From the IMG/VR virus record IMGVR_UViG_648276671_000014: a stretch of 24,740 nt of DNA; one strand, 5' to 3'. Below, in pieces: positions 3,975 to 21,644 of this stretch; within the stretch, counting starts at the first letter, position 1, and each line of letters starts with the position of its first letter. The notes under the pieces were generated by a model. The model was not told the origin of the DNA and made no database searches. It saw nothing but the letters and a program-made list of their open reading frames with translations. The translations under genes were made by a program, and so were the position numbers. The DNA comes from a virus (lineage: Duplodnaviria > Heunggongvirae > Uroviricota > Caudoviricetes).

Positions 3975-4201
3975 TGGCTGATGCAATGGATCTCGTACAG
4001 CAGCGAGTTGAAGAAGAACGCCAACGTCATATCCGTGCTGCCCGTGCCAAAACACCGGGCGTGTCCCGCGTGCTTTGCGTTGAGTGTGAAGCGCCAATTC
4101 CGCCAGCACGCCGTCGTGCCATTCCGGGTGTGCAGCTTTGCATTACCTGTCAGGAAATCGCAGAGCTGAAAGGCAAACATTACAACGGAGGTGCTGTATG
4201 A
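3974..4201 (+). CDS. TraR/DksA-family C4 zinc-finger protein (75 aa)
   Basis: CVEC...(16 aa)...CITC pattern near the C-terminus; translationally coupled on both sides. Confidence 0.75.
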   Translation: MADAMDLVQQRVEEERQRHIRAARAKTPGVSRVLCVECEAPIPPARRRAIPGVQLCITCQEIAELKGKHYNGGAV

Positions 4202-5055
4202 GCACCATCCTGAAATGGGCGGGAAATAAAACCGCCATTATGTCCGAACTGAAAAAACACCTTCCTGCTGGCCCGCGACTGGTTGAACCTTTCGCGGGTT
4301 CCTGTGCTGTGATGATGGCGACGGATTACCCCAGCTATCTGGTTGCTGATATTAATCCTGATTTAATCAACCTCTATAAAAAGATTGCCGCTGATTGCGA
4401 AGCGTTTATATCTCGTGCCAGAGCTTTATTTGAGGAAGCAAACAGGGAGGTGGCTTATTACAACATAAGGCAGGAGTTTAACTGCTCAACTGAAATTACT
4501 GACTTCATGAAAGCAGTATATTTCCTGTATCTCAATCGTCACGGTTACCGTGGGTTATGTCGCTATAACAAGAGCGGGCATTTCAACATTCCCTACGGTA
4601 ATTATAAAAATCCGTATTTCCCTGAAAAAGAAATTCGCGCATTTGCAGAGAAAGCCCAGCGAGCAACGTTTATCTGCGCCAGCTTTGATGAAACGCTGGC
4701 GATGCTGCAGGTGGGGGATGTGGTGTATTGCGATCCGCCTTATGACGGTACGTTTTCCGGCTATCACACTGACGGCTTCACTGAAGATGACCAGTATCAC
4801 CTGGCATCTGTTCTTGAATATCGATCATCAGAAGGTCATCCAGTCATTGTTTCTAACAGTGACACATCCCTGATCCGTTCGCTGTATCGAAATTTCACTC
4901 ACCACTACATCAAGGCAAAACGCAGCATCGGCGTGTCGGCTGGCGAGAGTAAATCTGCAACAGAAATCATTGCTGTTTCCGGGGCGCGCTGCTGGGTGGG
5001 ATTTGATCCTTCGTGTGGCGTGGATAGTTCTGCTGTGTACGAGGTGCGTATATGA
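4198..5055 (+). CDS. dam: Dam-like N6-adenine DNA methyltransferase (285 aa)
   Basis: N-terminal LKWAGNK...EPFAGS (AdoMet-binding) and catalytic DPPY motif; [14 protein letters not shown] segment resembles E. coli Dam; GGAG Shine-Dalgarno, start overlaps the upstream stop (ATGA). Confidence 0.85.
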
Positions 5056-7466: not shown

Positions 7467-7534
7467 TTACGCGGGTTAACAATTCGTGCTCTTAATAATA
7501 CCAGGCATATCAGGCTGATGAACGTAAAAAAACG

Positions 7535-7562
7535 TTTTACATCAGTAAGATTATTATATACT
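7535..7562 (+). promoter_or_regulatory. Putative SOS promoter (-35 TTTTAC, -10 TATACT) for the tum/dinI-like operon
   Basis: Hexamers read directly; the -10 overlaps the LexA box. Confidence 0.4.
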
Positions 7563-7576
7563 GTAAATATAAACAG
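7561..7576. promoter_or_regulatory. LexA box (CTGT-N8-ACAG: CTGTAAATATAAACAG)
   Basis: Exact CTGT and ACAG half-sites with an 8-nt AT-rich spacer, 44 bp upstream of the tum-like ATG. Confidence 0.65.
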
Positions 7577-7619
7577 TGGTTATACATACAGTATCGCTTG
7601 TGGTGTCATAGGAGGAAAG

Positions 7620-7808
7620 ATGCAGGACTATTTTTTGGAGTCTTTGAAGCTCCAGCGCATTGATTTTTTTCTTAAGCTTGTAGCGGCTAGTGAGTGTAGT
7701 GATGAAGAGAAGGGGCTGGCTTTGCAGTGGGTTTCTGAACTGACAGATGAACTCATGGCAAAAATCAGAACCCACGAATACAACCGCTCAATGGATGTCA
7801 TCAGCTGA
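7620..7808 (+). CDS. tum: Tum-like antirepressor N-terminal module (62 aa)
   Basis: First ORF after the LexA-controlled promoter, GGAGG Shine-Dalgarno; position matches the 186 tum locus. Confidence 0.5.
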   Translation: MQDYFLESLKLQRIDFFLKLVAASECSDEEKGLALQWVSELTDELMAKIRTHEYNRSMDVIS

Positions 7809-7818
7809 GGTGACTTTT

Positions 7819-8052
7819 ATGCGCATTGAAATAATGATCGATAAAGAGCAGAAGATTAGCCAGTCTACCCTGGACGCCCTTGAATCCGAGCTTTACCGCA
7901 ATCTGCGCCCCCTATATCCAAAAACGGTAATTCGCATCCGCAAAGGTAGCTCTAACGGTGTGGAACTGACTGGACTGCAACTGGACGAAGAAAGGAAGCA
8001 AGTGATGAAAATTATGCAGAAGGTGTGGGAAGACGACAGCTGGCTGCATTAA
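7819..8052 (+). CDS. DinI-family protein (77 aa)
   Basis: MRIEIMIDKEQ...LDALESEL...VWEDDSW parallels remembered E. coli DinI (MRIEVTIAK...IDALAGEL...TWESADDW); GAGGTG Shine-Dalgarno 5 nt upstream. Confidence 0.8.
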   Translation: MRIEIMIDKEQKISQSTLDALESELYRNLRPLYPKTVIRIRKGSSNGVELTGLQLDEERKQVMKIMQKVWEDDSWLH

Positions 8053-8322
8053 GAAACGTTGCTGGCGTCTGAACTTGCTTCTGGCGTCAGCAAGGTTGAA
8101 CAACGAGCTATGCGAGGCGTTAGTGTCAATTTGTTACCTTAACCACTATATATGCCAGGAAATTAACAGTTCTTAAGAAACCGCTTGCATGATCGAGCGC
8201 ATTGAACTTAAGTTTAAGTAACGAAATCAACAGATGATATTGTTGTCTAAATTTTAAAGATAATCTGTTGAGGTTGTAGGCGTCGGAGTGTAGACTTCCG
8301 CGCCATGTGAAAAGGGGGAGTT

Positions 8323-8538
8323 ATGTCAAGCATCGCCGCATTTAGCCTGGGTAACCCAGTTGAACGTCTGGCAAGGGTTCTTAAAGAGAACCAGGACAAA
8401 CTCAATCTTAGTAAAGATGGTTTTGTGTCCGTAGACTTGTCTAACAAAAGAGCAATGGATGCCATCAAGGCACAGATGGATAAGCTTGAAGGCATCAAAA
8501 CGAGCACTGTAAAAGAGAAAACTAATAGAACCAGATAA
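8323..8538 (+). CDS. Hypothetical protein (71 aa), first gene of an AT-rich cargo operon
   Basis: GGGGGAG Shine-Dalgarno before ATG 8323; hydrophilic; stop overlaps the next start (TAATG). Confidence 0.55.
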   Translation: MSSIAAFSLGNPVERLARVLKENQDKLNLSKDGFVSVDLSNKRAMDAIKAQMDKLEGIKTSTVKEKTNRTR

Positions 8539-8738
8539 TGGCAACATTACTTTTAGCAGTGATTTTGGTTAGTGGTTTTATTTATGTAAACCTATCACTT
8601 TCAACAAGATACCGATATAAGCGTTCCAACGGCTGGGACGCTTATTTTTTGTGGCTGCCTGGGGTATCGTTTTTTTCTCCTTGGCGGTTTTTTCACCTTT
8701 ATTTTGAACGTCAGCGGAGGGTTTCGTTGGCTGGCTAA
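8538..8738 (+). CDS. Small membrane ORF (66 aa), probably the N-terminal fragment of a frameshifted multi-pass membrane protein
   Basis: Translationally coupled ATG; hydrophobic helix LLLAVILVSGFIYVNL; reading frame ends just after three poly-T tracts. Confidence 0.4.
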   Translation: MATLLLAVILVSGFIYVNLSLSTRYRYKRSNGWDAYFLWLPGVSFFSPWRFFHLYFERQRRVSLAG

Positions 8739-8772
8739 TGCCTTGAATCTAACACCTGACAGTTTTAATGGC

Positions 8773-9378
8773 ATGTTGTCTTCATCGAAAGACAAACTTC
8801 AAAGAATAAATGAAATCAAACAGATAGCATGGGTTATGATTTCAATTGTTCTCGCTGCGATTTCAGGTTTTGGAAATAAGTTACGCACATCACGTGGAGA
8901 TCGTCGCTGGGATGCCTTAGCTAAAGCTGTGGGTAATAACGCTTTCGAATCATTACTCATGGAAGCGTCCGCAAGACAGTTTCCGATCATAGCAACTCTG
9001 TCGTCTCGCAAAATCTATGTTGGTCTTGTTACTTGTCCGGCGTTAGAAAACGGGCTTTCAGAACACCTTGAACTTCTCCCGATGTTAAGCGGATATCGGG
9101 ATAAAGATGATCTAACGATTAGTATCACGACTAACTATCACCAACATTATCTTGATAGTGGTGTGATAAGTGGAATGTCTCGGCTTAATATCGAAGATTT
9201 CCGTGTGCTCATACCAAAAGATGAGGTTGAAACAATTTCGTTTTTTGATACTGAGACATATAACAAATTTAAAGAAAATGAAGCCAGGGATAGAAAGAAC
9301 TGTCGAAAGATTGGTAGTAAAAGTGCATCTTCGCGCAGCAAGCGTGCAGCAGATGCTGAGTCAAATGATCGTGCATGA
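8773..9378 (+). CDS. Hypothetical protein (201 aa from ATG 8773; frame is open from 8590), probably the C-terminal continuation of the 8538 gene
   Basis: No Shine-Dalgarno before ATG 8773 or the upstream TTG 8704; frame stays open back into the 8538 ORF; hydrophobic segment IAWVMISIVLAAISGF then a soluble domain. Confidence 0.45.
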   Translation: MLSSSKDKLQRINEIKQIAWVMISIVLAAISGFGNKLRTSRGDRRWDALAKAVGNNAFESLLMEASARQFPIIATLSSRKIYVGLVTCPALENGLSEHLELLPMLSGYRDKDDLTISITTNYHQHYLDSGVISGMSRLNIEDFRVLIPKDEVETISFFDTETYNKFKENEARDRKNCRKIGSKSASSRSKRAADAESNDRA

Positions 9379-9426
9379 CTATGCTGCATGAGATCGCATG
9401 ATCGTTTGAGGATCGTTTTTGCTAAG

Positions 9427-9450
9427 GCCCGCCAGAACTGGCGGGCTTTT
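9427..9450 (+). terminator. Rho-independent terminator (GCCCGCCA-GAAC-TGGCGGGC then TTTT)
   Basis: Perfect 8-bp GC-rich stem followed by a T run, 49 bp after the operon stop. Confidence 0.6.
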
Positions 9451-9495
9451 GCGTAGATCATGCACCTGCATGAAAACTACTACATAAAGCGGGCA

Positions 9496-9514
9496 GGCGT
9501 GGCGGGGATACGAG
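9496..9514. other. Candidate cos cohesive-end site (GGCGTGGCGGGGATACGAG)
   Basis: First 13 nt match the remembered 186/P2 cohesive end (GGCG[T/A]GGCGGGGA...), followed by TGCGCG as in P2; lies between the early region and portal gene Q. Confidence 0.4.
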
Positions 9515-9538
9515 TGCGCGTAATAACTAATATTCCTA

Positions 9539-9567
9539 TTGACTTTCTATGATGCAATAGCTAATTT
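9539..9567 (+). promoter_or_regulatory. Putative promoter (-35 TTGACT, 17-nt spacer, -10 TAATTT) for the tRNA-like leader and HEPN-motif ORF
   Basis: Hexamers read directly; would start transcription at about 9574. Confidence 0.35.
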
Positions 9568-9573
9568 ATTTCT

Positions 9574-9657
9574 AGGCCTATAGTTTAATTTGGGAAAACG
9601 GCGGAGTATGATTTAGGTTATATATCCGTCATACCGGTTCGATTCCGGTTAGGCAAA
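9574..9657 (+). other. tRNA-like element (degenerate tRNA or tRNA mimic)
   Basis: Canonical T-arm ACCGG-TTCGATT-CCGGT (9633-9649), D-arm GTTT-AATTTGGGA-AAAC (9583-9599), U8-A9-like TA, 5 of 7 acceptor pairs; anticodon stem is not canonical and there is no CCA. Confidence 0.35.
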
Positions 9658-9685
9658 GAGCATTTTAGAGTGTTCTTTGCCTAAC
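9648..9685 (+). repeat. Perfect 12-bp inverted repeat (GTTAGGCAAAGA ... TCTTTGCCTAAC) forming a long hairpin ending 1 nt before the Shine-Dalgarno of the downstream ORF
   Basis: Arms at 9648-9659 and 9674-9685 are exact reverse complements; the loop can pair further with G-U pairs. Confidence 0.8.
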
Positions 9686-9697
9686 AGGATACGTAAA

Positions 9698-10447
9698 ATG
9701 ACTGATGACGAGATTAAAAATATTTTCCATGCTCAAACTGATAATGTTAGAGAGCTTGAGAAAGTCTGGAAACAAATAGTCAAAGAAATTAATACTGCAT
9801 TACGAACAGATAATGCAGTCCAAGTTGCACTTAAAACCAAAATGCTAGGTTTGGTTTTTTGCGCTCTTGCCGAAGCTCAATTTTCAAAGTTGATCCACAC
9901 GCCCGGTCAATTTTCCCCTAATGAAATAGAACAGATTAAATATGCAGCTTCATCTAATGTCTCAGATGGATGGTTAAAGTGCATAAATTTGGCTACGAGA
10001 CGACTATCGAAAGGCACAAAGCATAATCATGTTCCTAATGTTATTCAGGAGCTTGAAAGACTAGTTGATGATTTTATAAAAGCGCCAAGTTTAATTAGAA
10101 ATAAAATTGCGCATGGACAATGGGTTGTCGCTCTTAATAGAAAGAATACACATGTGAACTCAGAAATGACACATACTTTGCGTAATTTGACAATAGTGGA
10201 ATTAACAAAGTTTAAAGATGCTTTCACGAGAATGTCGCGAATAGTCGAAGATATTATTAAATCTCCTAATAAAGCTCATTTGCGTGATTATTGGCCGCAG
10301 CTTGAAGAGTTTAGAGCAAAGCAAAAGGAAATGGATAGTTGGACTCTTGCTGAAAAAGTCTTCCAATTAAAAAAGAAATATAATTACTCATCTAATATGA
10401 GATGTGAATCATGCGGTCAGTTACATGTTGATAGAAATAAACAATGA
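9698..10447 (+). CDS. HEPN-motif protein (249 aa), candidate RNase or abortive-infection effector
   Basis: AGGA Shine-Dalgarno 8 nt before ATG 9698; R134-N-K-I-A-H139 fits the HEPN Rx4-6H signature; AT-rich codon usage unlike the phage core. Confidence 0.65.
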   Translation: MTDDEIKNIFHAQTDNVRELEKVWKQIVKEINTALRTDNAVQVALKTKMLGLVFCALAEAQFSKLIHTPGQFSPNEIEQIKYAASSNVSDGWLKCINLATRRLSKGTKHNHVPNVIQELERLVDDFIKAPSLIRNKIAHGQWVVALNRKNTHVNSEMTHTLRNLTIVELTKFKDAFTRMSRIVEDIIKSPNKAHLRDYWPQLEEFRAKQKEMDSWTLAEKVFQLKKKYNYSSNMRCESCGQLHVDRNKQ

Positions 10448-10494
10448 TGATTATTATTTTGTGACACTTTCAATATTTTAATGCTTTATATATT

Positions 10495-10522
10495 AGCAAT
10501 GGTCATTAACATGACCATTGCT
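10495..10522. repeat. Perfect palindrome (AGCAATGGTCAT-TAAC-ATGACCATTGCT) between the HEPN-motif ORF and Q
   Basis: 12-bp arms are exact reverse complements with a 4-nt loop; no flanking T run. Confidence 0.8.
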
Positions 10523-10537
10523 ATGTGACCTAATATA

Positions 10538-18104: not shown

Positions 18105-18498
18105 AGCAGTGCCTTATGTCCGCAATAACCCGGACAAACTGCATCTGTTTGTGGATAACGGTTCGCTGGTTGCCACGGGGGCCAGCTCTATGTCGTGGGA
18201 GTACCGTTACACCCTGAACGCGGTGATTGAAGATTTCAGCGGCGACCAGAATCTGCTGATGGCCCCGGTTTTGCTGTGGCTGCGGGATAACCAGCCCGAT
18301 GCCATCAATAACCCGGCGTTACGGGAAAAGCTATTCACCTTTGAGGTGGATATTCTGCGCAACGATGTCTGTGATATCAGCCTTAACCTGCAACTGACGG
18401 AGCGTGTGCTGGTCAGCACTGACGGCAGTGTGTCGAACGTTGAAGCGGTAGCGGAACCTGATGAACCTGAAGAAATGTGGACGGTGAAACGTGGCTGA
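18067..18498 (+). CDS. R: Tail completion protein gpR (143 aa from GTG 18067)
   Basis: AGGAG Shine-Dalgarno 7 nt before the GTG; position and size as P2 R. Confidence 0.8.
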   Translation: MNKPQSLRHALNKAVPYVRNNPDKLHLFVDNGSLVATGASSMSWEYRYTLNAVIEDFSGDQNLLMAPVLLWLRDNQPDAINNPALREKLFTFEVDILRNDVCDISLNLQLTERVLVSTDGSVSNVEAVAEPDEPEEMWTVKRG

Positions 18499-18937
18499 AT
18501 TGCAGAAGGTGGACGACTGGCTGAGTGCCTTGCTGGTGAATCTGGAGCCAGCCGCAAGAAGCCGTATGATGCGCCAACTGGCGCAGGAACTGCGCAGGAC
18601 ACAACAGAAGAACATCAGGATGCAGCGCAATCCAGATGGCAGTAGTTATGAACCGCGACGGGTAACAGCACGCAGTAAAAAGGGGCGTATCAAACGTCAG
18701 ATGTTTGCAAAGCTGCGCACCACAAAATACCTGAAAACTGCCGCCAGCGCCGATTCTGCCAGCGTACAGTTTGAAGGTAAGGTACAGCGCATTGCCCGTG
18801 TTCACCATTACGGTCTGCGTGATCGCGTAAATAAAAAAGGTTTAATCGCGAAATATCCGCAACGTACTTTATTGGGCTTATCTTATAAAACAGAAGAAAA
18901 TATTATTATGAGCATAAAGGAGGAGCTATCAAAATAA
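18491..18937 (+). CDS. S: Tail completion protein gpS (148 aa); last 25 or so codons lie in AT-rich DNA
   Basis: GTG start overlapping the R stop; position and size as P2 S. Confidence 0.8.
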   Translation: MAELQKVDDWLSALLVNLEPAARSRMMRQLAQELRRTQQKNIRMQRNPDGSSYEPRRVTARSKKGRIKRQMFAKLRTTKYLKTAASADSASVQFEGKVQRIARVHHYGLRDRVNKKGLIAKYPQRTLLGLSYKTEENIIMSIKEELSK

Positions 18938-18977
18938 AGACGAGGAGGTTTAAATAACCCTCTCGTCTTTTGTTTTT
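18938..18977 (+). terminator. Rho-independent terminator after S (AGACGAG stem / CTCGTCT then TTTGTTTTT)
   Basis: Hairpin with a 7-bp perfect core plus a T-rich tail, directly after the S stop. Confidence 0.55.
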
Positions 18978-19203
18978 ATCCATAAGCCAGCTCCTGTGGA
19001 GATGGCGATTGATTAGCTGTTCATGTAAGAGTTAAATAGAGCTGAGATTTTTTGTGTATCCGTAACTGGATCAGTCGATGAGCCTTGTCTGATATAAAAC
19101 ATATTCTCAAAGTCGCAAATTTGACCTGTGCTCTGAATAGTTATCTTGAGTATGTGTAAGCCATTGTAAGAGCAAAACTCAATATTCTTAAGTATCTGCT
19201 GTT

Positions 19204-20787
19204 TTAGAGTTTCAGTGAAATCGTATCCTTGTATTTTTGTTTTATTAACATAAAGTAATCATCAATGCTACCAGAGACTAACATTGCTTCATGATCAATT
19301 CCGTTTATATAGAACCCATTGAACTCAATTGAATTTACTCCATATAAATGTTGAATTCTATCTGCGGTTAATTTATTTTCGGCAATACCAACTAAAATAT
19401 AGCCTTTTGCGCTTTTTCCAATATTATTTATTGCTACGCAAGTTTGTAATATTCCTTTTAAACATTCATCATCAAATTCATTTTTACCTGATAAATTAAA
19501 GAACCCCTGTTTGAAATCATAACTTGGTTGTTCAGTTCTAGAATTTGTTAATAGATTGCGAATTTCAGTTACCCAAGCATGATTCACATACTTTTGAGGA
19601 GCAGGTTGGAAGTAGCGACTTATTAATGCAACAAGATCATTAACACTTTTTTCACGAGTGCTTGCAGCCCAGCGGCCACCATCGGTAACCATAATTATGG
19701 TATTGCCAGTGTTTTTTAATTGCGAGAATAAACCTTCTTTATCAATTAATTGCATATTTTGGTTGAAAAGAAGTTCATAAATAGACAAAAACACAGCTTG
19801 ATAATAACGAGGGCATTCTTGAGATGAATTATCCTCCCCTAAAATATGGCTTCTAAAAGTATCATTTTTTCCGTCATATAGGCTTGTAATTAATTCATAT
19901 ACAGCTATGAAATTCTGCTTAATAGTGGCAGCGTTATTGGTTTGAATGAAAGACTCTAATTGCTGTCTGACACCATGAGCATGAGAGGAGTTTCCTTGAC
20001 CATAGAATGTGTCGAGAGAAGTTGACCCAGATGTGGGTTTTTCTTCTAGACTGATATATGCAAGGATATTGGCTATCAATTCCTCGTCATCAGAATCACG
20101 AATACTTCGTCTTGTTAAAATATGATGTTTTATATAAAAGTGGTTATCGATATTTACCCCGTACTCCAATCTATCGTTACTGATTGAAATTTTGTGCATT
20201 TGCTGGAGATTCATAATGTCAGAATGGCTAGTATCACCTCTGATCGATGTTGATATCGATCTGACCAGTTCAGAGAAGTTACTAACTGTTCCTGCACTAC
20301 GTAATTCTTGTTTGGATAAAATCTTCCCGTTTGAGTTTATTCGTCTGAATACTTCGTCAATATTTTCATTTGTGGAGCTATATTCTGATATTGCAAATCG
20401 ATAACGTGCAATAATTGCTGAAGAATCACGGGAAAGAATTGGTTCTTTCTGAATTAAAGTTCCATTATCTTTAAGTTGTTTTGTTAAAGCTATAGAGTCC
20501 AAATCAAAATATTGTCCATCTAATGAAAATCTCTGTTCGATGAAGCTCATAATTGCTTCTAATCTTTGCATTCCATCCAATATTTCTCTTTGTTCATTGA
20601 TGGTAACAAATAATAATAACGGAATAGGATATTGTTGCAGCATAGAAGATATTAAAGAAGTCTTTTCTTCTAGAGACCATACAAGTTTCCTTTGATAACG
20701 TCTATTGACTATCAAATTTCCTTGCAAATACCATTCGTATAATTGCTCGGTAGTCCTTGAGTCAATATCAAGATTTTCATTTGGCAT
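19204..20787 (-). CDS. DUF262 (ParB/Srx-like, DGQQR-type) domain protein, 527 aa, with an unassigned C-terminal half
   Basis: AAGGAG Shine-Dalgarno 7 nt before ATG 20787; N-terminal motifs NRRYQRKLVW and DGMQRL match the DUF262 signature; no DUF1524-type EHI.P motif seen; strongly AT-rich and opposite in orientation to the flanking late genes. Confidence 0.8.
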   Translation of the reverse strand: MPNENLDIDSRTTEQLYEWYLQGNLIVNRRYQRKLVWSLEEKTSLISSMLQQYPIPLLLFVTINEQREILDGMQRLEAIMSFIEQRFSLDGQYFDLDSIALTKQLKDNGTLIQKEPILSRDSSAIIARYRFAISEYSSTNENIDEVFRRINSNGKILSKQELRSAGTVSNFSELVRSISTSIRGDTSHSDIMNLQQMHKISISNDRLEYGVNIDNHFYIKHHILTRRSIRDSDDEELIANILAYISLEEKPTSGSTSLDTFYGQGNSSHAHGVRQQLESFIQTNNAATIKQNFIAVYELITSLYDGKNDTFRSHILGEDNSSQECPRYYQAVFLSIYELLFNQNMQLIDKEGLFSQLKNTGNTIIMVTDGGRWAASTREKSVNDLVALISRYFQPAPQKYVNHAWVTEIRNLLTNSRTEQPSYDFKQGFFNLSGKNEFDDECLKGILQTCVAINNIGKSAKGYILVGIAENKLTADRIQHLYGVNSIEFNGFYINGIDHEAMLVSGSIDDYFMLIKQKYKDTISLKL

Positions 20788-21001
20788 AATTTTTCTCCTT
20801 GTTAGATTGAACTTATATATTGTCAATAAACATCTTTTGTGTCAAAGATTACATAGTAACTGCCTAAATTAATTGGCTTTTAATAATTAAAGACGTAGCT
20901 TTCAAGTGCTTTTTTAAGAGCATTGAACTTCTTAACTTGCGCAACGTCATTCGACCTTTTGCAACGTATTAATGCTCTAACGCAGACCATTGAAAGGCAT
21001 T

Positions 21002-21019
21002 TGTTCTATGTCTAATACA
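21002..21019. promoter_or_regulatory. Late-activator dyad TGT-N12-ACA upstream of V
   Basis: TGTTCTATGTCTAATACA read directly; spacing to the V ATG is shorter than expected, so the assignment is tentative. Confidence 0.35.
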
Positions 21020-21065: not shown

Positions 21066-21644
21066 ATGAACGCACAATTAACCGAAATCATGCGCCTTAT
21101 CACCAACCTGATCCGCACTGGTGTAGTCACCGAAGTGGACCGGGAGAATTGGCTTTGCCGGGTGAAAACGGGCGACCTTGAAACTAACTGGATCAGTTGG
21201 CTGACGCTGCGCGCGGGTAATGCCCGGACATGGTGGCGACCATCGGAAGGTGAGCAGGTGGTGCTGCTGAGTCTGGGCGGAAATCTGGAAACCGCCTTTG
21301 CGTTGCCCGCCATCTATTCGAATCAGTTCGCTCCACCGTCGACATCAGCGGATGCCTGCGTGACAGAGCATCCTGACGGCGGCTGGTTTGAATATGAACC
21401 CGCCACCGGGCGCTGGTTTGTCAGGGGCATCAAATCAATGGTCATTGAGACCGCTGACAATATCACCCTGAAAACCAGTGAGTTTGTGCTGGAGGCTGAC
21501 CGCACGCGTATTAACAGCGAAGTATTGATCAATGGTGGCGTTACCCAGGGCGGCGGTGCGATGAGTTCTAACGGGATCGTGGTTGATGCGCATCAGCATA
21601 CTGGCGTCCTGAAAGGCGGCGATACAACCGGAGGCCCGGTATGA
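21066..21644 (+). CDS. V: Baseplate spike protein gpV (192 aa)
   Basis: Motifs IRTG.V.E.D, WL.WLT.RAG..RTWW.PS.GEQV and the C-terminal SSNG...H.H.G parallel P2 V. Confidence 0.9.
   Translation: MNAQLTEIMRLITNLIRTGVVTEVDRENWLCRVKTGDLETNWISWLTLRAGNARTWWRPSEGEQVVLLSLGGNLETAFALPAIYSNQFAPPSTSADACVTEHPDGGWFEYEPATGRWFVRGIKSMVIETADNITLKTSEFVLEADRTRINSEVLINGGVTQGGGAMSSNGIVVDAHQHTGVLKGGDTTGGPV

Follow-up and report, generated by a model that had tools for sequence, protein, structure and literature searches.

A frameshifted DUF262-Schlafen gene, probable anti-phage cargo at the S/V junction of a P2/186-like prophage

Introduction

Prokaryotic Schlafen proteins (pSlfn) have been catalogued by Perez Taboada et al. 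(Nat Microbiol 2026; PMC13056530), who assembled 5,930 of them, defined by a PF04326 Schlafen domain of more than 100 aa (E<0.001) and a conserved Ex4(E/D)xK motif. Fusions to DUF262 represent 1.8% of these proteins and constitute the class pSlfn7; the DUF262-Slfn architecture was thus already described in 2026, and protection has been shown experimentally for one member of the class. [quoted passage not shown] The Ex4(E/D)xK motif is required for pSlfn defence, and RorSlfn5, which belongs to a different class and has an Ig-like sensor, cleaves the anticodon arm of tRNA in a trigger-dependent manner that needs the Ex4DxK residues (PMC13056530). Five of the seven pSlfn systems tested gave no defence (PMC13056530), and one of these five may be a close relative from Enterobacter, a genus in which alleles with 89% identity to the protein studied here occur.

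DUF262 is also the N-terminal NTPase domain of GmrSD and BrxU, where it is combined with a C-terminal DUF1524 His-Me finger DNase, and it is present in SspE, of the SspABCD-SspE system, in the Dnd-associated DUF262 entry 9jfl and in NsnA, of the Menshen system NsnABC. NsnA, GmrSD and SspE have in common the "ParBDB" DNA-binding domain, a concept taken from PMC12065111.

This work concerns a stretch of viral DNA of 24,740 nucleotides (IMG/VR record IMGVR_UViG_648276671_000014, Caudoviricetes), hereafter the window. The original prediction, made from the sequence alone, had described here a stand-alone DUF262/ParB-like protein of 527 aa without a recognisable partner domain, which might be a modified-DNA sensor with a different effector. 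The locus is here considered a probable pSlfn7-type single-gene anti-phage system, carried as cargo between genes S and V of a P2/186-like prophage and represented in the window by a recently inactivated copy; the intact protein would contain a DUF262 sensor, a helical ParBDB-like region and a C-terminal Schlafen/AlbA_2 ribonuclease domain with the Ex4DxK motif.

Results

The island between genes S and V

The window is a P2/186-like prophage which shows, from the left, the integrase, CI, CII, a D12 adenine methyltransferase, gpA, a DinI-like protein and an AT-rich stretch, followed by the portal gene Q, the terminase, capsid and lysis genes, the tail genes R and S, the island, and V-W-J-I-H. 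The island, 2.1 kb long, contains a single substantial gene, the one studied here (Table 1). Its GC content is 31-36% (positions 19001-21000), against 54-60% on both sides, in agreement with the AT-rich island that had been reported. At its left edge, folding revealed a hairpin with fold energies of -20.9 kcal/mol (z -3.65) on the plus strand and -29.1 kcal/mol (z -6.34) on the minus strand. Judged from its sequence, this hairpin is likely a bidirectional terminator, serving the O operon, which ends after S, and the leftward gene; the P2 record has a terminator annotated at the equivalent position. At the right edge, a TGT-N12-ACA element resembles the annotated activator-binding site of the P2 pV promoter, TGTTGTCTGGTAGTTCTACA, a likeness of sequence only, compared by eye. 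In P2, the equivalent slot, which is delimited by the O-operon terminator following S and by the pV activator site, contains the nonessential leftward Orf30, so the placement of the window gene in the orf30 slot holds, with equivalent boundaries. Orf30 itself is a 261-aa hypothetical protein, unrelated to the window protein. A consensus scan for promoters and terminators found sites no commoner than in shuffled sequences, and no promoter for the gene.

Extent and reading frame of the gene

The ORF as first read, on the minus strand, shows an ATG start codon preceded by an AAGGAG sequence and encodes 527 aa, and is a real leftward ORF, as predicted. It is not a complete protein but a copy, truncated by a one-base deletion, of a 591-residue DUF262-Schlafen nuclease fusion. 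Alignment with the intact E. coli C21 over 2.2 kb gives seven mismatches and a single gap, which corresponds to one A absent from an A6 run, and the gene is 1775 nt long in the window versus 1776 nt in the RefSeq CDS of C21 (protein WP_073461753.1). In the intact gene the run reads AAA CAA AAA ATA (K-Q-K-I); with the frame shifted at this A run, the stop codon at 19204 is a product of the frameshift. The remaining 73 codons, which include KIQGYDFTETLKQQ and end in ALFNSYMNS before the stop, continue in the other frame to 19013, with no stop codons and one amino-acid change only. When one A is re-inserted, a 591-aa ORF is obtained that has three amino-acid differences from the homologue P0001 (591 aa), itself 100% identical to the window ORF over 98% of the query. 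Homologues are 585-610 aa long, and more than 100 full-length relatives were returned by a search of 5.8 billion proteins. Since homologues are of about 591 aa, one A is missing and the downstream frame is readable, the true gene spans 19013..20787. No NCBIfam family matched the window protein.

Table 1. Coordinates of the features of the S/V island and its flanking genes in the window
Feature	Position	Strand	Remarks
Gene S (virion morphogenesis / tail completion)	18491..18937	plus	left flank
Hairpin, U-runs on both strands	18936..18970	both	island left edge; found by folding
DUF262-Schlafen gene, full extent	19013..20787	minus	591 codons and stop after re-insertion of one A
Stranded 3' part of the gene	19013..19233	minus	native residues 519-591, out of frame
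Schlafen/AlbA_2 nuclease domain	19064..19533	minus	residues 419-575 of the intact protein; interrupted after residue 518
527-aa ORF	19204..20787	minus	518 native residues, 9 out-of-frame residues (YKDTISLKL) and premature stop
Frameshift site	19234..19238	minus	A5 in the window versus A6 in intact alleles
Predicted catalytic motif E419-x4-D424-x-K426 (TEQPSYDFK)	19510..19533	minus	still encoded upstream of the frameshift
Mostly helical middle region	19588..20280	minus	residues ~170-400; secondary structure from AF2 model
ParB-type DUF262 (GmrSD_N) NTPase/sensor domain	20293..20721	minus	residues 23-165
Shine-Dalgarno AAGGAG	20795..20800	minus	7 nt upstream of the ATG at 20787; read from the sequence
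TGT-N12-ACA element upstream of V	21002..21019	plus	island right edge
Gene V (baseplate assembly)	21066..21644	plus	right flank

Domains and motifs of the intact protein

The N-terminal part of the protein matches Pfam PF03235 (GmrSD_N/DUF262; residues 23-165, E=1.3e-17) and shows the motifs QRxxxW (Q32, R33, W37), DGxQR (D71, G72, Q74, R75) and FxxxN (F147, N151), so the DUF262 signature first noticed as YQRKLVW and DGMQRL is present. The best PADLOC match, the NsnA (Menshen) model, covers residues 9-348 (3e-23). Since this model spans the DUF262 domain and then the helical ParBDB region, the first part of the mostly helical middle region corresponds to the ParBDB domain. At the C-terminus, intact alleles match Pfam SLFN_AlbA_2 (PF04326) over residues 419-575, model positions 1-117 of 118, with scores between 27.6 and 40 bits (P0001: 27.6 bits, E=4.6e-6) for a gathering cut-off of 25.3 bits. 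The window ORF shows a sub-threshold fragment of this match, of 54 aa (residues 419-472; 15.3 bits, E=0.029). Fold comparison also assigns the effector domain to the Schlafen/AlbA_2 fold. Residues E419, D424 and K426 and those of the DUF262 motifs are invariant in 38 homologues, with identities down to 37%, and the predicted catalytic motif matches the Ex4(E/D)xK required for pSlfn defence (PMC13056530).

A DUF1524 His-Me finger domain, on which the original prediction was to stand or fall and of which it saw no sign, was not found in the window ORF or in the intact alleles by profile and structure comparisons. Other candidates were discarded: PDB sequence searches gave HNH matches that were weak, spurious and outside any nuclease motif, and the PDB profile search returned BrxU weakly and a chance match to YtvA, and nothing else. 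The effector is thus non-HNH, as had been supposed, and it is the lack of a recognisable domain in the C-terminal part that did not survive, because intact alleles contain SLFN_AlbA_2 there. The partner domain was missed in the first reading because the one-nucleotide frameshift truncates the ORF: the C-terminal 300 aa then inspected did not extend to the final 73 native residues, and the Schlafen/AlbA_2 domain was cut in two.

State of the window copy and other alleles

In the AF2 model, the residues removed by the frameshift (519-591) comprise strands 537-541, 544-552, 563-568 and 571-575 and helices 526-535 and 578-590; the nuclease domain thereby loses two helices and four of its eight β-strands, together with the invariant R567 and the near-invariant Y541 and G569. 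The motif is kept but the domain is unlikely to fold, so that the loss of the nuclease would come from disruption of the fold; as the stranded 3' part shows no further decay, the event would also be recent. On this model, the gene in the window is most likely a pseudogene of recent origin.

The frameshift might instead be an artefact of sequencing or assembly, in a strain whose 591-aa gene is intact and functional. Only one base is affected, within a homopolymer, miscalls of homopolymers are common with some sequencing technologies, and the 73 downstream codons are preserved as described above. The A6 form, of 34 nt, is present in every uninterrupted copy from complete E. coli genomes (26/26) and in the six IMG/VR and metagenome matches (6/6). 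However, the A5 allele, with exactly the same 527 aa, is found in two other public sequences, GCA_052850915.1 and an independent Logan read-set assembly; their island sequences are the same, with 11 differences from the window. At five sites these two islands group with strain P276M, which has A6, and the window groups with the intact C21. The A5 deletion therefore lies on two haplotypes, by recurrence or recombination, and its presence on a haplotype different from that of the window indicates that real deletions occur at the site. Moreover, other copies have been inactivated in other ways: an IS1 insertion interrupts the gene in two genomes, and in P276M indels leave a CDS of 461 aa. An artefact is accordingly unlikely, and a real inactivation of the window copy is preferred.

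The A-run frameshift on two haplotypes, the IS1 insertion, the indels and the remnants of a paralogue in the IncF plasmid backbone (847 records, with an unbroken stretch of at least 80% of it in only 107) constitute repeated independent inactivation, which hints at a fitness cost. It is a good deal more doubtful that the A6 run in the nuclease domain recurrently switches a costly, prophage-borne tRNase on and off, or attenuates it. If it did, DUF262-Schlafen systems would be repeatedly counter-selected, for instance through autoimmunity, or alternatively toggled, with rare -1 slippage on the A run restoring traces of the full-length enzyme; such a site would be at odds with reports that defence pseudogenes are rare in P2-like phages.

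It is very unlikely that the truncated 527-aa protein is still active, either as a nuclease-less DUF262/ParBDB sensor or DNA-binding protein (a decoy or regulator), or because occasional -1 slippage yields a small amount of full-length protein and so attenuates a toxic effector. The shift leaves untouched the DUF262 domain, the middle domain and Ex4DxK, which are encoded before it; the deletion is seen on two haplotypes; and, from reading of the sequence, a -1 slip of tRNA-Lys on C-AA-AAA-T would regenerate the wild-type K-I-Q-G. Nevertheless, half of the β-sheet of the nuclease domain is lost in the AF2 model, no slippery heptamer or stimulatory structure was identified at the A run, and a run of five A is on the short side for slippage or phase variation to be efficient.

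Comparison with pSlfn7 and with other DUF262 and Schlafen systems

The intact version of the window gene shows every sequence and structure character of pSlfn7. Its alleles contain a Schlafen domain within the limits used for pSlfn, whereas the window ORF does so only once the frameshift is corrected; E419, D424 and K426 are also present in the window, and the DUF262 domain is in the same polypeptide. As in pSlfn7 and EcoSlfn7, a single polypeptide contains DUF262 and a PF04326 Schlafen nuclease with Ex4(E/D)xK, encoded by a single gene of Enterobacterales on mobile elements or islands; the window copy differs from EcoSlfn7 in being frameshifted. By replicon size (PMC10326431), UC4224 corresponds to none of the 28 genomes with a chromosomal copy of the P2-borne allele, nor to any of the 60 plasmid records listed for the IncF paralogue. 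EcoSlfn7 is therefore not the P2-borne allele. The paralogue in the IncF backbone has 69% identity to the window-type protein and, as UC4224 has an IncF plasmid, EcoSlfn7 may plausibly be this paralogue, in which case its identity to the window protein would be 69%.

The protein shares the N-terminal DUF262 NTPase domain with GmrSD and BrxU, but has Schlafen/AlbA_2 in place of their DUF1524 DNase and shows no sign of modified-DNA dependence. A GmrSD-like type IV restriction enzyme, or a modified-DNA sensor, that acts on DNA by a novel non-HNH effector would be in keeping with the homology of its DUF262 domain to those of GmrSD, BrxU and SspE and with its RefSeq name, "GmrSD restriction endonuclease domain-containing protein", a misleading public name for a protein whose effector is of the Schlafen type rather than HNH. 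Against this, the tested DUF262-Slfn, EcoSlfn7, acts best on T7, which is not known to carry hypermodified bases. AlbA_2 domains such as that of SAMD9 can bind DNA (PDB 7ksp, title), but here there is no DUF1524 domain and the effector is of the Schlafen type, whose characterised members are RNases (PMC13056530). Such a DNA-directed enzyme is highly improbable: of the modified-DNA sensor with a different effector, the different effector stands, as Schlafen/AlbA_2, and the sensing of modified DNA is disfavoured by the activity on T7.

SspE and the Dnd-associated entry 9jfl differ in their effector domain and in their association with phosphorothioation, the genes for which are absent from the island. 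Menshen NsnA has DUF262 and ParBDB regions as the window-type protein does, but no adjacent gene for an NsnB ABC-ATPase or an NsnC effector is present here, the effector being fused in cis; neighbours of the NsnB/NsnC type were not found in the 2.1-kb island nor around the family members of Rivularia, Vibrio and the IncFII plasmid. The PADLOC PD-T4-2_A model matches the DUF262 part only (residues 10-181). From the PADLOC naming, PD-T4-2 is presumably a multi-gene system with a partner to its DUF262 protein PD-T4-2_A, and differs from the window island, which has no second gene. Compared with the eukaryotic SLFN11/12/13/14 and the SAMD9 tRNase domain, the bacterial protein has a single catalytic lobe only, lacks helicase and SAM or other regulatory domains, and has the DUF262 module as its sensor.

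The S/V junction as a site of defence cargo

The survey of the S/V junction that had been proposed as a check took one genome per species and covered the 68 P2-like prophages for which S and V could both be located. The junction is empty (11-165 bp) in 34 of them and holds a cargo of 0.6-4.3 kb, mostly AT-rich and leftward, in the other 34. Known or candidate defence models were matched at five of the nine cargo loci sampled: SIR2/ThsA-like (PDC-S25), PDC-S49, a Septu PtuA and PtuB pair, ApeA-like and PARIS AriA-like. The S/V (orf30) junction of P2-like prophages is thus a hotspot of defence cargo, which agrees with the secondary P2 hotspot described as "downstream of GpL / within the tail genes" (PMC13586616). 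The window island has the features of these loci and of P2 orf30: it separates S from V, with the O-operon terminator on one side and the pV promoter on the other, it is GC-poor, and its gene points leftward. The DUF262-Schlafen family is absent from all 34 cargoes of the surveyed species. In the main texts of the P2-hotspot literature examined, DUF262, Schlafen and GmrSD are unmentioned, and the P2 S/V location is mentioned neither there nor in the main text of PMC13056530.

Among 50,697 deposited phage genomes, no full-length homologue was found, only partial DUF262 matches. Outside phages, the Rivularia family member is located among housekeeping genes and adjoins a PemK toxin-antitoxin pair, the Vibrio member is inside an integrase-bounded island, and the IncFII plasmid paralogue is between pemIK and parM, beside the IncFII replicon. 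These three contexts show no conserved partner gene, and the locus has a single-gene organisation. A non-defence role in ParB-like maintenance, partition or addiction of mobile elements, to which the ParB fold and the plasmid location between pemIK and parM could point, is extremely improbable given the nuclease effector domain with its conserved catalytic motif, the presence of the gene among housekeeping genes outside plasmids, the known defence systems that fill the slot in other prophages, the defence phenotype of EcoSlfn7, and a frequency of loss and breakage unlike that of an essential maintenance function.

Discussion

By analogy with GmrSD, BrxU and SspE and with the characterised Schlafens, the DUF262/ParBDB module of the intact protein would detect a cue of infection, most likely phage nucleic acid, and this detection may be coupled to NTP binding or hydrolysis. 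Detection would release the cis-fused Schlafen nuclease, which might then cut tRNA, shut down translation and lower the phage yield. The defence phenotype of the class is that of EcoSlfn7 and the tRNA cleavage that of RorSlfn5 (PMC13056530). In the window copy, the loss of one nucleotide from the A6 run, which shifts the frame after codon 518 and removes the last 73 residues, would leave the sensor with a nuclease domain unable to act.

The tempting reading of this locus as an orphan DUF262 sensor with an unrecognised effector is corrected by these results: it is a frameshifted copy of a DUF262-Schlafen gene. The S/V (orf30) junction is documented as a defence hotspot, with Septu, SIR2/ThsA-like, ApeA-like, PARIS-like and DUF262-Slfn cargo. 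The broken and intact alleles provide natural on/off pairs in which function may be tested, and the trigger sensed by DUF262 in the DUF262-Slfn class would be the main prize.

Inactivation of the P2-borne allele

The DUF262-Schlafen allele carried in the S-V junction of P2-like prophages has been inactivated by at least three different routes. The first is a deletion in an A-run, present in two haplotypes: that of the window (19234-19238) and that shared by two other sequences (L002/L003). The second is an IS1 insertion, which occupies the same span in both affected genomes (CFSAN064035 and 22AR0322), and the third consists of complex indels in P276M (L010), leaving a CDS of 461 aa. In P2-like phages, defence pseudogenes are reported to be rare, about 2% of pseudogenes (PMC13586616).

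Cargo of the S-V junction and of the gpA-gpQ region

Among 68 P2-like prophages (L011-L084), the S-V junction is empty (11-165 bp) in half, and the other half shows 0.6-4.3 kb of cargo, mostly AT-rich and leftward, which includes several defence-like proteins (see table). PADLOC gave no match for four sampled cargo proteins (L024, L025, L035 and L036). The classical defence hotspot of P2-like phages is old/tin (PMC9122126), whose position corresponds in the window to 7467-10537, between gpA and the portal gene gpQ, an AT-rich region (GC 32-43%) containing a DinI-like ORF and two ORFs of 224 and 256 aa. Both of the latter match only PHROGs of unknown function, with no match in Pfam or PADLOC, and are candidates for uncharacterised defence cargo. 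In the early region of the prophage, a gene just 5' of gpA encodes a D12-class N6-adenine DNA methyltransferase (Pfam E=7e-76).

Location of the features
Feature	Sequence	Coordinates	Strand	Remark
D12-class methyltransferase	window	4138-5055	+	early region
DinI-like ORF	window	7747-8052		gpA-gpQ region
ORF, 224 aa	window	8704-9378	+	phrog_3630
ORF, 256 aa	window	9677-10447	+	phrog_12663
Plasmid paralogue	L009 (E. coli plasmid pEC96-CTX-M-215)	4836-6608		IncFII
Vibrio chagasii member	L006-L008	6001-7782		island
Septu (PtuA+PtuB)	L040, L032			S-V cargo
SIR2/ThsA-like protein	L022			S-V cargo
PDC-S49	L031			S-V cargo
ApeA-like protein	L055			S-V cargo
AriA-like ATPase and second ORF	L084			S-V cargo

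Relatives on other mobile elements

A paralogue of the DUF262-Schlafen protein with 69% identity, flanked by pemIK and parM, belongs to the IncFII plasmid backbone and was found in 847 E. coli records, only 107 of which contain 80% or more of it as a single uninterrupted stretch. Two remnants are common: P0068 (1685 member sequences), an N-terminally truncated protein of 500 aa annotated as 'AlbA family DNA-binding', and P0075 (1100 member sequences), a fragment of 336 aa. A short ORF annotated as hypothetical occurs in about 40 large lytic coliphages, which are T-even-like phages of Escherichia and Shigella such as GEC-3S and kaaroe (H145-H160); this ORF matches only DUF262 residues 16-91 (37-38% identity) and might, speculatively, be a decoy or a fragment. 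The family member of V. chagasii (61% identity) is located in an integrase-bounded island, adjoining genes for P2-type CI/CII repressors and a replicase/primase-type gene. Since this island resembles a satellite or a small integrative element, the DUF262-Schlafen gene travels on several kinds of mobile element.
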